Positions 20,454 to 26,229 of a DNA stretch of 32,000 bases are shown here, one piece after another (the first letter of the stretch is position 1; the number at the start of each line of letters is the position of its first letter). Origin of the DNA: Candidatus Saccharimonadota bacterium. GTDB lineage: Bacteria; Patescibacteriota; Saccharimonadia; Saccharimonadales; Saccharimonadaceae. The DNA is taken from assembly GCA_025349965.1 (NCBI GenBank), contig CP075337.1:90001-122000 (forward strand), written 5' to 3'. The notes under the pieces are model-generated. The model worked only from the letters and a program-made list of their open reading frames with translations, had not been told where the DNA came from and did not search any database. A program made the position numbers and the translations under genes.

Positions 20454-20481
20454 CAAAAAAACCCTTCCTTTGAGGAGGGTC
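20454..20481 (-). terminator. Rho-independent terminator, inferred to be the original tRNA-Met terminator displaced by the islet
   Basis: The minus strand reads AGACCCTCCT-CAAA-GGAAGGGTTTTTTTGTTTG. It begins 13 nt from the left TTGGTAG repeat and has the same layout and TTTTTTGTTTG tail as the terminator after the initiator-like tRNA. Confidence 0.65.
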
Positions 20482-20494
20482 TTTAAATCATTTC

Positions 20495-20501
20495 TTGGTA
20501 G
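20495..20501. repeat. Left copy of the 7-bp direct repeat TTGGTAG (putative attL core)
   Basis: Identical to 26152-26158, which is the reverse complement of the tRNA end CTACCA plus one nucleotide. Confidence 0.5.
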
Positions 20502-20630
20502 AATGGGTTCATTCGAAATGGAACTCAATTCTTTCTGAACTGGTAGCCATGAATCGTATCGTTGAAGCTTCTAGGGATTATGACCTGTTGAGTATTAAGC
20601 GTTAGTGATTGAACTATAGGTGCTAATGGC

Positions 20631-21602
20631 TTACAGATTTTCCACCGACATTTTATGGGTCTCCTTATTAACCCGTAGTTCGTACTCTTTTGTGATGGAG
20701 TGGTGCTGGGTATTCGCCACGCCATCGTTGACTGTGCTGGAAAGCTCATAATCGTCACGCTCTGGTCGCCGCAATAAGACAATTTTGTAATACATTGTCA
20801 CTCTAGCGTTGAGGTAGTAATTCTCATCATCTTCCTTGTAGATGTAGTAATTTTCTAGGACATCGGTCAACCACTCTGAGTCTAAAATTTCCCAATCGTA
20901 TTTGAAGGAGTAGTCAAAGTCGAAAGGACGTTCTTGTTCTGTTATGTCAGCATCGGTCTGCTCTAGGTATGGTTGGAGGGTTTCCAAAATCACCTCTTCA
21001 GTAATGTAGTCAACTGTCTTACTATTCATTTCCAAGAAGCTACCGAGACTCGTATGATACACCACTCTCTCTTGGACGCCCAAGCTTAAGAGTTCATCTC
21101 TAAGTGCTTGACTTAGTTCATTTTTACCGAAATCATCTGAATTTTCAGATATGAAGGCTACTTTCTTTGTAGGGTTTTTGGTTAGATACGCTATCAAGCT
21201 GTACCAAATTAGCGTATCCATAAAGCCACGCCCTCTCGACTTAAACGGAGCAGTTTCATGAACGGCTCTATCGAACAGCTGGTCTACGGTAACATCTCCC
21301 CAGCCGAGGTGCTGCTTAAAGGGCGCTGTGTAATTGTCGAATTTTGCTATAATTGCATCGCTAATCTCCGCCCTACTTACAGAGTTCTCTATCAGGCCAA
21401 GTTTTACCTGTTTCAGCTGTTGAAACTTTCGATATTCGGCATCTGCAGTTGCTAGTGCGTGTTTTTTGACCTCCGCTTCAACGACTGATGGTATGAGCAG
21501 CTTCTTTTCAGACAATAACAAGAACGTACTTAGCGCCTGAAATTCTGGCGTTTCAAAGGAGCTGTTCTTGTCGTAGATGTTTGTATCAAGCAGGATATCC
21601 AT
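20631..21602 (-). CDS. PIN-like nuclease domain protein (DUF4935/PIN_12-like N-terminus) with an unassigned acidic C-terminal domain
   Basis: The motifs MDILLDTNIY, LIPSVVEAEV, GFMDTLIW and ISENSDDF supply the conserved acidic positions in PIN order. Residues from about 170 to 323 are beta-rich and acidic, with no family recognised. Confidence 0.65.
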   Translation of the reverse strand: MDILLDTNIYDKNSSFETPEFQALSTFLLLSEKKLLIPSVVEAEVKKHALATADAEYRKFQQLKQVKLGLIENSVSRAEISDAIIAKFDNYTAPFKQHLGWGDVTVDQLFDRAVHETAPFKSRGRGFMDTLIWYSLIAYLTKNPTKKVAFISENSDDFGKNELSQALRDELLSLGVQERVVYHTSLGSFLEMNSKTVDYITEEVILETLQPYLEQTDADITEQERPFDFDYSFKYDWEILDSEWLTDVLENYYIYKEDDENYYLNARVTMYYKIVLLRRPERDDYELSSTVNDGVANTQHHSITKEYELRVNKETHKMSVENL

Positions 21603-21608
21603 TTACTT

Positions 21609-21617
21609 ATGATACCA
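21609..21617 (-). promoter_or_regulatory. Extended -10 (TGgTATCAT) 6 nt upstream of the PIN-like gene ATG
   Basis: The minus strand reads TGGTATCAT-AAGTAA-ATG. Confidence 0.5.
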
Positions 21618-21705
21618 GTATTACCGAGGCACATAAAATCACCTTGAAACTGGAGTGCAGTGTAGCCCCTACAACAATCTTGTTAAGTTAGGTACAATAG
21701 CGTAA

Positions 21706-24009: not shown

Positions 24010-24165
24010 CTTAAAAAACAAAAGAAGGCACCGTGAAGTGTCTTACGCTCGTAGCAGCAGGTTTTGCCTAACTGTTTACACGGTGCCTAATTTATAGGCA
24101 AAAACCGTAACAGAAACCTGCAACGAAAATCCACTGCTATTTTATTAAACGTAAGACACTACTAG
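24010..24165 (-). promoter_or_regulatory. Structured RNA element: candidate pseudoknotted leader/attenuator of the DUF4352 gene, or an independent sRNA
   Basis: Four perfect complementary pairs are present:
- A: 24026-35 / 24079-88, 10 bp
- B: 24037-47 / 24150-60, 11 bp
- C: 24057-64 / 24114-21, 8 bp
- D: 24062-70 / 24095-103, 9 bp

B, C and D nest, while A links the apical loop to the flank. The minus strand ends with TTCTTTTGTTTTTT. The strand and TSS are tentative. Confidence 0.4.
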
Positions 24166-24384
24166 TATATCCTATTTGGTTAATAACAGAAGCGGAGCAG
24201 TGAGGATTGCCTTATTTTTGGTTTTTATGACAACGAAAAAGCCTTCTGAAAAAGCTATAATATAAGTAGTCGTTTTGATAGAAATGAATGTCTATTAATA
24301 ACAAGCTATAGTGGTGACTAGGACTCTAAGACGGAGTAAAACGGCCCATCTTATCCTGCTATTCAGCGCCTAAAGACTAACTGG

Positions 24385-24398
24385 CCAATATATATTGG
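24385..24398. repeat. Perfect 14-bp palindrome CCAATATATATTGG within an imperfect palindrome of about 40 bp
   Basis: It lies 34 nt upstream of the small ORF/recombinase operon. The flanks AAAGActAACTgG and tAGTTtttCTTT extend the symmetry. The right arm contains a third TTGGTAG (24395-24401). Confidence 0.6.
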
Positions 24399-24431
24399 TA
24401 GTTTTTCTTTGTCGCAGAATAGTGGAGAGAT

Positions 24432-24647
24432 GTGGTGCGAGATAAAGACCACGAGCTACTCGAAGATGCAAAACAAACAATTACAGTTAAAGAAGCGAGG
24501 AAGCTGCTCGGAGGCAATTTTTCATCTCTTAGTGACGAAGCTTTGGAGGATATGATAACGGTGCTAACTCTTATCGCAAGAGCTTCTATCACACCTGAAT
24601 TCAGTTCCATAAAACATAGCTCAACCAGTAAATCCCTATATAATTAG
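24432..24647 (+). CDS. Small helical protein upstream of the recombinase (possible directionality or regulatory factor)
   Basis: GTG start (24432 or 24435) after GGAGAG. 71 aa, acidic and helical (ITVKEARKLLGGNFSSLSDEALEDMITVLTLIARA). It ends 4 nt before the recombinase ATG. The functional call rests on position only. Confidence 0.4.
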   Translation: MVRDKDHELLEDAKQTITVKEARKLLGGNFSSLSDEALEDMITVLTLIARASITPEFSSIKHSSTSKSLYN

Positions 24648-24651
24648 TTCC

Positions 24652-26196
24652 ATGAAAAAAGGATTGATTTATGTTAGGGTGTCCTCTAAAGAACAGGTAC
24701 AGGGTACGAGTCTTGTTGAACAGGTCCGTGCTTGTCAGGAGTTTGCACGAAAGAAAGACACTGCCATTACAGAAGACGGTATTTACCGTGAAGAGGGTGA
24801 ATCTGCTAAGGTAATTGACCGCACCGAACTGCAAAGACTTATCAAATTTGCAACAAACAAGAAAAATGAAGTGGACGTACTTTATATCTGGAAAATTGAC
24901 CGTCTGGCTCGGAATCTAAGTGATTACTATGCGATTAAAGTATTACTTGCTCAGAGTAATGTAAAAATAATCTCCGTAACGGAACCTATTGATGATGACC
25001 CTGTCGGAAGATTTCTTGAGGCTATATTGGCAGCTGCCGCACAATTTGATAATGAGATTCGTGCCATACGAACTACGGGCGGTATGCGGGCGAGGGTTGA
25101 GCAGGGTCGCTGGCCTCACGATGCACCAATCGGCTACCTAAAGAAGAACAAGCGTGTTGTTATAGACCCCGTATTCGGTCCTATAGTAAAAGAGCTTGTG
25201 CTGACCTATTCAAAGGGCGGCTACAATTATTCAGACTTGGCTAGCCTAGCTTTTAAAAAGGGAATAATGACGAAATCTGGTAAAAAGAAAACAACTGACC
25301 AGATGAAGCGCATGGTAACTAACCCTATATATGCAGGTTTTACCGTTAGTAAGCTTTCACCCACTCCTGTTAAGGGTCTGCATGATGCTTTAGTTGATTT
25401 GGAGATTATAAAAAAGAACACGAATATCGTTAATGGAGTGGTAAAAAATTACTCAGTGCAGGGTGATGACCTATTTCCTCTTCGAGGTAGCCTACTTTGT
25501 ATTATTTGCGAGAAAACTATGACCGCAAGCGCACCAACAGGGTCTAGTGGCGATAGATTCCCTCGTTATGGCTGTAACCGTAGCTCGTGTACCAAACGGG
25601 CTACAGGAAGGGCTATTGCGAGCAAAGGTATTGATGTGGTTCACGAGGACTTTCGTGACCTCTTGCGCTCTCTGAAGCCACTAGATGAGGGCGTAGGGCG
25701 TCTCTATAAAAAACTTGTCTTGCGTGTATGGAACGAGTCGTTTGCTAAAACAACCGAGTCCATTAGTGATATTCAGAAAAAGATTGAGCGGGCTGAAAAA
25801 TTCAAGGTAAATGTCACGGCGAAGTTTATCAACGACCAGATTACTGAGGCTGAACGTAATCTTCAGATGGACGGTATTGATAATGAACTTGCCTCGCTAA
25901 ATCAAGAGCTTGAGAATCTAAGTGAGTATAAAGAGCGAAATGAAGGTTTGGTTGATACGGCTATGGAATTTGTAAGTGACCCAGAAAAGTTTTGGAACCG
26001 TGCTGCTACCCCTGTTAAGAAACTAGTCCAACAGTTCCTATTCCCAGGCGGCATTGCCTATGATTTTGAAACAGGGTTTGGAACTATCGAAAAGATTGAT
26101 TCTTATCTGTTAATAAACAAAATCAGCGGTAAAACCGCTGAAAATACTAATTTGGTAGCAGCGACAAGGATTGAACTTGTGACCTCGAGCTTATGA
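24652..26196 (+). CDS. Large serine recombinase (phage-integrase type)
   Basis: Resolvase catalytic domain with the Ser motif LIYVRVSSKEQ and IWKIDRLARN. It also has a recombinase domain, a zinc ribbon (CIICEKT...RYGCNRSSC) and a coiled coil (ISDIQKKIERAEKF...LNQELENLSEYKER). The last 14 codons are read from tRNA-Met sequence. Confidence 0.9.
   Translation: MKKGLIYVRVSSKEQVQGTSLVEQVRACQEFARKKDTAITEDGIYREEGESAKVIDRTELQRLIKFATNKKNEVDVLYIWKIDRLARNLSDYYAIKVLLAQSNVKIISVTEPIDDDPVGRFLEAILAAAAQFDNEIRAIRTTGGMRARVEQGRWPHDAPIGYLKKNKRVVIDPVFGPIVKELVLTYSKGGYNYSDLASLAFKKGIMTKSGKKKTTDQMKRMVTNPIYAGFTVSKLSPTPVKGLHDALVDLEIIKKNTNIVNGVVKNYSVQGDDLFPLRGSLLCIICEKTMTASAPTGSSGDRFPRYGCNRSSCTKRATGRAIASKGIDVVHEDFRDLLRSLKPLDEGVGRLYKKLVLRVWNESFAKTTESISDIQKKIERAEKFKVNVTAKFINDQITEAERNLQMDGIDNELASLNQELENLSEYKERNEGLVDTAMEFVSDPEKFWNRAATPVKKLVQQFLFPGGIAYDFETGFGTIEKIDSYLLINKISGKTAENTNLVAATRIELVTSSL
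26152..26158. repeat. Right copy of the 7-bp direct repeat TTGGTAG (putative attR core)
   Basis: Covers the tRNA-Met 3' terminal CTACCA plus 1 nt. Identical to 20495-20501. Confidence 0.5.
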
Positions 26197-26229
26197 GTCT
26201 CGCGCTCTAACCAACTGAGCTACGCTGCC
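26153..26229 (-). tRNA. Elongator tRNA-Met (CAT), CCA encoded
   Basis: The reverse complement is GGCAGCGTAGCTCAGTTGGTTAGAGCGCGAGACTCATAAGCTCGAGGTCACAAGTTCAATCCTTGTCGCTGCTACCA, a 77-nt cloverleaf. The D arm and variable/T region match E. coli elongator tRNA-Met as I recall it. There is one A-G mismatch closing the anticodon stem. Confidence 0.9.

Follow-up and report, generated by a model that had tools for sequence, protein, structure and literature searches.

A 5,657-bp islet at the CCA end of a saccharibacterial tRNA-Met gene, with a large serine recombinase and a predicted swap of the recombinase tail upon integration

The window analysed here comprises 32,000 nt from Candidatus Saccharimonadota bacterium (assembly GCA_025349965.1, contig CP075337.1, positions 90,001-122,000 of the forward strand). 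On this chromosome of Candidatus Saccharibacteria, an islet of 5,657 bp (20502-26158) is bordered by two plus-strand copies of the 7-bp sequence TTGGTAG, i.e. the putative cores of attL (20495..20501) and attR (26152..26158). The right copy is antisense to the tRNA-Met end C71-U72-A73-C74-C75-A76 (CTACCA in sense direction) plus the first trailer base. A first-pass annotation had proposed an insertion between these repeats, cautioning that the 7-mer also occurs elsewhere. Both copies are present, and the caution is justified: the window contains eight copies versus 3.3 expected, including those at 14260 and 24395. The lower GC content that it had noted for the islet extends over all 500-nt windows between 20251 and 26250, with values of 0.39-0.45 versus mostly 0.46-0.53 on the two sides. 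No long direct repeat and no displaced tRNA fragment were found at the distal islet end, and TTGGTAG alone is repeated. The left islet end contains, at 20606-20614, a short motif (TGATTGAAC) reminiscent of a T arm. In the core region, no dyad symmetry was detected, and the central dinucleotide was not located.

The target gene, tRNA-Met(CAT) at 26153..26229 (minus strand), is intact and entirely of host origin, and ARAGORN and Rfam agree on its identity. A consensus scan revealed a weak, pattern-only promoter-like site upstream of it (26262..26290, minus strand; TAGTCA-17-TAGAAT with a TG extension). The native tRNA-Met terminator is found at the opposite islet border, directly left of the left core copy (20440..20494, minus strand). 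As described in the first-pass annotation, it combines a hairpin (−14.7 kcal/mol, z −2.1) with a downstream T-run and is similar to the trailer sequence behind the tRNA at 14261-14338. It is now 5.66 kb away from the tRNA gene, downstream of the PIN_12 gene of the islet.

Deletion of 20502-26158 had been predicted to recreate a tRNA-plus-terminator unit, and a comparison with related genomes had been recommended. Exactly this arrangement is present in the related genome L006, which is 98-99% identical (flanks 97.7-98.8%) and in which the terminator directly adjoins TTGGTAG and an identical tRNA-Met. The neighbours of the empty site, an ABC-2 gene and a gene for a 177-aa protein, are the same as in the window, so that the occupied and empty states of one site are found in two closely related genomes. 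The blastn alignment breaks at 20501 and 26152 with seven bases in common, which yields the insert size of 5,657 bp. Relatives have this core as well. Starting at TGGTAG and reading inwards, the left islet end is conserved between the window and the closest islets (L001 and L005), and the DNA left of TGGTAG is unrelated in each case. The nucleotide identity of the integration module between the window and L001 is 82.6%, compared to just 66% for host genes. The 7-bp common core and the exact empty site are consistent with recombination between a short attP and attB with a 2-bp crossover.

The only recombinase of the islet is a serine recombinase of 514 aa in its integrated isoform (24652..26196, plus strand), and none of the islet ORFs contains a tyrosine integrase domain. 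Domain and fold evidence agree with its previous assignment to the large serine recombinases. Pfam identified a Resolvase domain (PF00239, E 9.4e-31, residues 6-154) and a Recombinase domain (PF07508, E 8e-6). Residues R9, S11, R84, and R87 are invariant among 30 relatives, the zinc-ribbon cysteines C283, C286, C308, and C313 are conserved, and PF13408 is on record for several homologues. The AlphaFold model of the homologue P0046 contains a coiled coil (helices 345-392 and 398-441), and its Foldseek matches include 9dxd, 9iu2, 9rah, and 4kis, the best being full-length integrase-att complexes.

The members of this family have about 513 residues, and their genes are nearly always convergent with a tRNA gene, within which the reading frame ends. 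A genome scan showed that 46 of the 73 loci with an ORF reaching a stop codon end inside a convergent tRNA gene. The scan covers eleven tRNA types in several phyla; relatives at 25-35% identity, likewise from several phyla, adjoin eleven other types of tRNA gene. All family proteins end in either an antisense-tRNA peptide or a long tail. Across the whole family, the recombinase is associated with tRNA 3′ ends.

The remaining genes of the islet include several that we infer to be cargo of the toxin or defence type. They encode a PIN_12-domain protein (20631..21602, minus strand; Pfam PF16289, E 2.8e-20), an RmrA-like M78/IrrE peptidase-domain protein (21706..22809, plus strand; PF06114, E 9e-15; PADLOC RmrA models, E 2e-16), and a DUF4411 PIN-like nuclease (22814..23359, plus strand; PF14367, E 2e-24), which is probably paired with the M78 protein. 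According to the gene tables, a DUF4352 membrane or secreted protein (23404..23967, minus strand; PF11611, E 1e-28) is common to L001 and L005 as well. A conserved small protein with the motif ..ITVKEARKLLG..SDE.. is encoded directly upstream of the recombinase gene (24432..24647, plus strand), as it is in about 20 loci of the family. It has no match in Pfam or PADLOC; speculatively, it could be a directionality factor or a regulator. Phage or conjugation genes were not found in the islets of 4.5-8.4 kb.

A feature that the first-pass annotation had not described is that the crossover core is situated inside the recombinase ORF. The 34 final recombinase codons and the stop codon (EWVHSKWNSILSELVAMNRIVEASRDYDLLSIKR, then stop) are detached and lie at 20502..20605 (plus strand), where they would form the P′ arm of attP. 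Only a circular junction brings them into frame with 24652-26158. The insertion interrupts the gene of the integrase itself and thereby swaps the tail of the protein: in the integrated gene, the antisense strand of the tRNA gene contributes the final 12 residues and the TGA stop codon, the TGA being located in the anticodon loop. When the left end is joined to the right junction, a conserved tail of 32-45 residues results in frame at all loci with a located core, i.e. (T)TTGGTAG at tRNA-Met and TTGGTGA at tRNA-Glu; the joins in L005 and L101 were judged by eye. In every integrated locus with enough flanking DNA, the tail-coding segment is found 4.5-8.4 kb upstream on the same strand.

Between the window and L005, the tail differs by 12 synonymous and three non-synonymous codons, and the other frames are stop-rich. 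The pN/pS values range from 0.07 to 0.77 (nine correctly aligned pairs). These codon comparisons indicate that the long-tail frame is under purifying selection. The tail is retained in the Met and Glu clades, and a W-N motif akin to that of the tail follows the core in an Acidobacteriota relative. The confidence of its predicted structure is modest (pLDDT about 60). Homologous tails terminate the intact ORFs P0045, P0046, P0069, P0071, and P0109, and intact long-tailed ORFs of 532-555 aa exist in public data. In addition, one 4,499-bp sequence occurs as circular permutations in four assemblies (0 mismatches; terminal overlaps of 141, 141, 55, and 30 nt), and a 6,355-bp contig with a terminal overlap of 30 nt assembles as a circle. 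Both contain an intact long-tailed recombinase ORF across attP.

The first-pass annotation had also concluded that the islet separates the tRNA from its terminator. This applies to the native terminator, but the islet provides a putative new one. On the minus strand, a predicted intrinsic terminator at 26112..26141 comprises an 8-bp hairpin (26141..26123) followed by TTTTGTTTATT, antisense within the recombinase codons LLINKISGKTAE. The hairpin starts 11 nt past the CCA end, so that the tRNA gene would not be left without a terminator. Its folding energy is −15.0 kcal/mol (z −4.4), a value reached by 0 of 200 shuffles. In the Met clade, 13 of 14 loci have such a hairpin, versus 0.006 expected, with seven different stem arms. 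An analysis of compensatory changes (set A5) revealed changes on both sides in five of seven pairs and pairing in 95.9% of the cells; neither the pairing percentage nor the covariation score was reached by any of 500 shuffles. Among the family loci checked, the hairpin was not found in the tRNA-Glu sub-branch or in L101, and an islet-borne terminator is therefore not universal. For the islet described here, the pattern of paired substitutions suggests that the hairpin terminates tRNA-Met transcription.

Taken as a whole, it is highly probable that 20502-26158 is an integrative islet that was inserted by its own large serine recombinase via site-specific recombination, with attP located near the end of the recombinase gene, inside its 3′ part. 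The attB site would consist of the tRNA-Met gene end (sense ...CTACCA plus the first trailer base), the trailer, and the terminator, and would have only TTGGTAG in common with attP. The tRNA gene would represent the B′ arm of attB, and the native terminator its B arm. As the sequences show, the last 34 recombinase codons are left at the far (left) islet end, and the integrated recombinase gene instead reads 12 antisense-tRNA codons and stops at TGA. Excision would restore a circle encoding the full-length, long-tailed recombinase.

Parts of this model can be read differently. The left-end segment could be a micro-gene of its own or a mere DNA-binding arm of attP, and not the recombinase C-terminus. 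The motif CGAA(A/T)TGGAAC is indeed conserved at the DNA level at a distance of 15-25 nt from TGGT, and gene callers have reported orphan ORFs of 36-61 aa with the tail peptide. However, conservation extends over about 100 nt, far past the length of an att arm, the changes are mostly synonymous, the frame is continuous with the recombinase, and the public 532-555-aa ORFs include the peptide, all of which makes this reading very improbable. The hairpin could belong to the attP architecture or act as a signal in the recombinase mRNA, in which it would also form because it is palindromic. Its distance of 11-30 nt from the core is in the range of att arms, and the Glu clade manages without it. Yet the varying stem sequence with retained pairing disfavours a sequence-specific protein site, the T-run follows the hairpin on the tRNA strand only, and native tRNA trailers of the same genomes have the same layout, so that a function other than tRNA termination appears quite unlikely. 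We regard it as unlikely, though less so, that the circular contigs arose in assembly from chromosomal tandem arrays and do not represent free excised circles, in which case the islets may have lost mobility. A tandem repeat unit would likewise assemble with overlapping ends. Fossil recombinase 3′ ends adjoin the left islet ends of L005 and L098, L101 and L105 contain two tail copies each, and L017 has four core-plus-tail copies at a spacing of about 0.9 kb. In contrast, the four assemblies yield only the 4,499-bp unit, without chromosomal flanks and with differing breakpoints. The occupied/empty polymorphism and an integration module that is much more alike between hosts than the host genes also argue for mobile circles.

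The tail swap could be a neutral by-product of the overlap between attP and the gene end, with the direction set by a separate factor, here the protein encoded at 24432-24647; this is quite plausible, at somewhat less than an even chance. The small ORF (VKEARKLLG..SDEQ) in front of the recombinase gene fits this reading, and the length and sequence of the tRNA-encoded tail change with the tRNA, suggesting that this tail is incidental. However, the small protein matches no known family. Furthermore, the purifying selection on the long tail, its retention in the Met and Glu clades, and the W-N motif of the Acidobacteriota relative point to some role of the long tail in the circular state. Speculatively, the long- and short-tailed isoforms may differ in activity or direction. 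The more far-reaching version of integration by tail swap is tentative, and we consider it possible but doubtful. According to it, an old serine-integrase lineage of several phyla has specialised in tRNA CCA ends, and recombination toggles between a long-tailed, integration-competent isoform encoded by the circle and a tRNA-tailed isoform, the sole form available for excision in the integrated state. The direction would then be determined at least in part by the DNA state, and not only by a separate directionality factor.

tRNA genes are held to be the territory of tyrosine integrases, and a clade of serine integrases at tRNA 3′ ends widens this textbook rule. The islets also exemplify an alternative way of sparing the target: the cut is made at the last bases, no tRNA copy is carried along, and a predicted terminator is supplied. 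Because integration alters the C-terminus of the enzyme, nature provides a test case for the control of direction, in which integration and excision assays allow a head-to-head comparison of the two isoforms. As minimal integrative modules (small protein, integrase, and attP), the 4.5-kb circles may be of practical use: their target site is conserved in Saccharibacteria and other Patescibacteria, where genetic tools are scarce.

The islet recombinase has the same architecture of resolvase, recombinase, zinc-ribbon, and coiled-coil parts as the large serine integrases of phages and ICEs (Bxb1, PhiC31, and the Listeria A118/LI integrase). Their attP and attB sites likewise have little identity, which amounts to 7 bp in the islet. 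In the LI-integrase model the arm motif of attP is shifted outwards by 5 bp relative to that of attB, and the same offset is found for the tRNA-side arm motif of the islet. Unlike the phage and ICE enzymes, the islet recombinase targets a tRNA gene end, has attP inside its ORF, and is not accompanied by phage or conjugation genes; its identity to any phage integrase is about 25% at most.

Integration of serine recombinases into tRNA genes was regarded as unusual in the first-pass annotation and has been called "rare" in the literature, the examples being phage phiRSM1 (tRNA-Ser) and some Mycobacterium AICEs (tRNA-Leu) (PMC3218068); a minority of tycheposons also have a large serine recombinase (bioRxiv 10.1101/2020.12.28.424599). 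These elements, which we compared by description only, share the use of a tRNA site with the islet. In the literature consulted, we found no description of an ORF containing attP, of a conserved tail that is swapped, of an embedded terminator, or of a single clade with many tRNA types as targets and members in many phyla. The tRNA islands of tyrosine integrases (Islander, PMC4383910) resemble the islet in the use of the tRNA 3′ side, the integrase gene beside the tRNA, the variable defence-type cargo, and the tandem remnants. However, the gene is rebuilt in them by a tRNA fragment on the island, which leaves a long direct repeat, whereas the islet uses an enzyme of another superfamily, 7 bp, and a crossover at the CCA end. 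Integrases of the SSV1 type (PMC8371274) also have attP in the integrase gene, which is split upon integration, but they are tyrosine recombinases of archaeal viruses and are split deep in the gene, in contrast to the short C-terminal tail of the islet enzyme. The single serine integrases of rumA-targeting streptococcal ICEs have a direct repeat within the integrase gene's 3′ end, and upon integration the C-terminus is altered in both its length and its sequence (Ambroset et al. 2016, PMC4701971), as in the islet. Neither conjugation genes nor a reciprocal exchange with a protein-coding target were found at the islet, and its target tRNA is intact. The rumA-type ICEs are large conjugative elements that reciprocally exchange the 3′ end of a co-oriented protein gene, whereas the islet leaves a convergent tRNA gene unchanged, the tail lost upon integration is conserved, and a terminator is supplied.

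The outline of the islet (20502-26158) is revealed by a relative with an empty site. As sought, this locus (L006, in a metagenome-assembled genome, contig size 408 kb) reads terminator, TTGGTAG and tRNA-Met in the gap separating two neighbouring genes, the ABC-2 gene and the one for the 177-aa protein, and the left flank protein has a 98% identical homologue there (P0121). The organism belongs to Candidatus Saccharibacteria according to the names under which relatives of the flank protein and the recombinase are recorded. In a blastn comparison with L006, window positions 15012-20501 and 26152-32000 aligned with 97.7% and 98.8% identity, respectively. 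The L006 coordinates of the two blocks overlap by exactly the 7-bp core, and therefore the insert comprises 5,657 bp, the size predicted in the first-pass annotation. A first genome-contig scan with the ABC-2 flank protein gave no matches, and neither the recombinase nor the 177-aa flank protein had an identical record in exact-sequence look-ups.

The target tRNA (26153-26229, minus strand) was called by ARAGORN as one of three tRNA(CAT) genes, in agreement with Rfam, and an Rfam scan of 19500-27000 yielded no further RNA family. Both TTGGTAG copies are present (20495-20501 and 26152-26158); eight copies occur in the window versus 3.3 expected, so that the repeat alone is indeed weak evidence, as had been cautioned. 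The terminator described on the minus strand directly left of the left copy is a hairpin followed by a T-run (−14.7 kcal/mol), and its layout resembles that of the trailer behind the 14261-14338 tRNA, as noted before. The islet is also GC-poor, with values of 0.39-0.45 in each 500-nt window of 20251-26250 versus mostly 0.46-0.53 outside. The observation is real, and the interpretation of the first-pass annotation is supported.

Some features of the surroundings were recorded in addition. Two more GC dips (0.40-0.43) lie beyond the islet, at 2001-2750 and 17251-18000. The three tRNA(CAT) genes are found within 13 kb (13565-13640, 14261-14338 and 26153-26229), one of them being initiator-like; by analogy with E. 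coli ileX, the gene at 13565-13640 may be tRNA-Ile2, in which case the target would be the elongator tRNA-Met. The otherwise near-identical genomes of the window and L006 differ in length at 14417-15012 (595 bp versus 388 bp at L006:15355-15743), within a membrane-protein ORF (14436-15005, 189 aa) beside the initiator-like tRNA.

The recombinase ORF (24652-26196, plus strand) extends 44 nt into the tRNA gene on the opposite strand, and its stop codon TGA is the antisense of U33-C34-A35 of the tRNA. Homologues of ~513 aa, down to 39% identity, share this kind of end peptide, e.g. ..LVAATRIELVTSGL or ..VVAATGLEPVTFGL. We also surveyed 80 genome loci of distant relatives with recombinases that are 25-35% identical. 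A stop codon ends the ORF in 73 of them, and for 46 of these 73 it falls within a tRNA gene of convergent orientation. The hosts of these distant relatives include Acidobacteriota, Bacteroidota, Patescibacteria, Planctomycetota, and Verrucomicrobiia, and the tRNA types hit are Met, Ala, Lys, Glu, Arg, Ser, Gln, Phe, Val, Asn, and Leu. The possibility that the recombinase is a mere passenger was rejected because, throughout the family, it keeps the same placement and reading frame with respect to the tRNA. In the close family, tRNA-Met(CAT) is the usual target, and tRNA-Glu(CTC) is used in one sub-branch (L100, L103, L104, L107, and L110; ~50% identical, core TTGGTGA), i.e. the target was switched inside one family.

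The left end of the islet is conserved inwards from TGGTAG in the window and in the two closest islets (L001 and L005), with different flanking DNA outside. When the recombinase frame is joined from 26151 to 20502, it encodes LV-EWVHSKWNSILSELVAMNRIVEASRDYDLLSIKR*, the detached 34-residue tail being located at 20502-20605. Between the window and L005, this stretch has 12 synonymous and three non-synonymous codon differences, and the other two frames are stop-rich. The pN/pS values of the tail range from 0 to 0.77 in nine further correctly aligned pairs, seven of which have values of ≤0.47. In each integrated family locus whose flank is long enough, a tail profile has a match 4.5-8.4 kb upstream of the recombinase gene and in the same orientation. 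In all cases the join is in frame at the shared core, i.e. (T)TTGGTAG (Met) or TTGGTGA (Glu), the cores of L005 and L101 having been positioned by eye and not by automatic search. The tails are 32-45 residues long and conform to ..KWNQI(K/R)xEL(I/V)xMxxIV.., and the intact long form exists in public proteins of 532-555 aa (P0045, P0046, P0069, P0071, and P0109). The same logic applies to two distant loci, L017 at tRNA-Ala, with LVDQNSASWNRV.. following the core TTGGTGG, and L018 at tRNA-Gln, with MAELRVSDWNSLKSELLRW.. following its core. A search with the tail peptide against 1.84 billion representatives retrieved only four small ORFs.

Straight after the tail stop, a motif resembling the antisense of a T-arm was observed (TGATTGAAC, GGGATTGAAC or GGACTTGAACC). 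It lies at 20603-20614 in the window and at the same position in L001, L005, L094, L100, L104, L110, L113, L088, and L090, and in the latter two its in-frame translation is A(A/I)GLEP. The motif may represent the relic of a tRNA or, alternatively, an accessory site.

The islet appears to bring its own transcription terminator for the tRNA. On the tRNA strand, 11 nt past the CCA, the sequence reads TCAGCGGT-TTT-ACCGCTGA and then TTTTGTTTATT; the hairpin has a folding energy of −15.0 kcal/mol (z −4.4) and is encoded antisense in the recombinase codons LLINKISGKTAE. Using a criterion of ≥6 bp including ≥4 GC pairs, followed by ≥6 T in 9 nt, a hairpin was found in 13 of the 14 loci of the Met clade, i.e. 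the close-family islets at tRNA-Met(CAT) (shuffle mean 0.006). These hairpins have seven different stem arms. In set A5, 95.9% of the cells are paired and five of the seven pairs have changes on both sides; neither the observed percentage paired nor the covariation score was reached by any of 500 shuffles, and slid controls were paired at 29-49%. In set A6, 100% of the cells are paired, with changes on both sides in three of the eight pairs. No hairpin of this kind was found in the Glu clade or in L101. In several hosts examined, the native trailer supplies the arm to the left of the islet, an unrelated GC hairpin. Based on these alignments, the hairpin and T-run are a putative built-in tRNA terminator.

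Resolvase and Recombinase domains were detected in the 514-aa recombinase, and the coiled coil was seen in a structural model of the homologue P0046 (mean pLDDT 79.6), which has the usual domains. Beyond these, the model contains a disordered linker (490-508), which includes the residues encoded by the core, together with a tail helix (505-528, pLDDT ~60). In structural comparison, it is most similar to full-length serine integrase-att complexes, i.e. those of Bxb1, PhiC31, and LI integrase. A phage origin was rejected, as the best phage integrases are ~25% identical and IMG/VR contains no close relative. Every attP carries CGAA(A/T)TGGAAC ending 25 nt past TGGT, and every attB carries the T-loop-derived AT(T/C)GAAC ending 20 nt past TGGT. 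A shift of 5 bp between attP and attB motifs agrees with the published model of serine integrase sites, and it hints at a crossover centre near the GT of TGGTAG. A dyad-symmetry scan of attP and attB for the central dinucleotide gave background values only.

The islet interval contains six ORFs. In addition to the recombinase, domain matches identified a PIN_12 protein, an M78/IrrE-domain protein that also matches PADLOC RmrA models, a DUF4411 PIN-like protein, and a DUF4352 protein; the sixth is a 71-aa ORF. The cargo differs from islet to islet, e.g. a DNA methylase and an ATPase in L001, CTD10, MC6 and DUF2326 proteins in L005, and AbiU2 in L088. The DUF4352 gene was ruled out as a common component, since it is absent from the circle-like contig L090, and thus forms part of the cargo in the closest relatives only. 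Directly before the recombinase, ~20 loci encode a small protein (24432-24647 in the window) that bears the motif VKEARKLLG..SDEQ. Pfam and PADLOC searches with this protein and the genes of the circles were uninformative except for AbiU2 in L088.

The integration module is 82.6% identical to that of L001 at the nucleotide level, versus 66% for the host genes, which points to horizontal movement of the module. Contigs L090-L093, from four assemblies, are the same 4,499-bp sequence in circularly permuted form, without mismatches and with terminal overlaps of 141, 141, 55 and 30 nt, and L088 (6,355 bp) has a terminal overlap of 30 nt. The 4,499-bp sequence and L088 each carry a long-tailed ORF spanning the hairpin, TTGGTAG and the tail, and no replication genes were recognised on the circle contigs. 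A tandem array could have assembled likewise.

Several loci contain additional junction-like sequences. In L005 (4330-4486) and L098 (90-127), the islet is preceded on its left by a degraded recombinase 3′ end that runs ..FPYDFETGY.., hairpin, TGGTAG, so that the left junction looks like an entire attP, which suggests that islets integrated in tandem or one after another at the same tRNA. L101 (5948-6010 and 6960-7049) and L105 (1343-1381 and 2187-2273) each have two tail-coding copies ahead of a single recombinase gene, a further sign of stacked islets. In L017 (288-3046, Acidobacteriota), the core TTGGTGG with a 26-codon tail occurs four times at a spacing of 857-916 bp, two copies falling within an exact 300-nt duplication; they may form an array, made up either of remnants or of small non-autonomous units.

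Ghinet et al. called serine-recombinase integration at tRNA genes rare, citing phiRSM1, and reported Mycobacterium AICEs integrated at tRNA-Leu (PMC3218068). A large serine recombinase is present in 27 of 937 tycheposon-type elements (bioRxiv 10.1101/2020.12.28.424599), and tRNA goes unmentioned in Durrant et al. 2022. In the rumA-targeting serine integrases of Ambroset et al., the repeat lies within the integrase gene and the C-terminus is altered on integration (PMC4701971). The recombinase described here resembles them in having an att repeat in its own gene and a C-terminus that is swapped by integration. As both serine integrases at tRNA genes and the rumA-type change of the C-terminus have been reported, this kind of system is already known. 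The targeting of a convergent tRNA gene at its CCA end, the conserved swapped tail, the embedded terminator, and a clade of this breadth were not found described in the literature searched.
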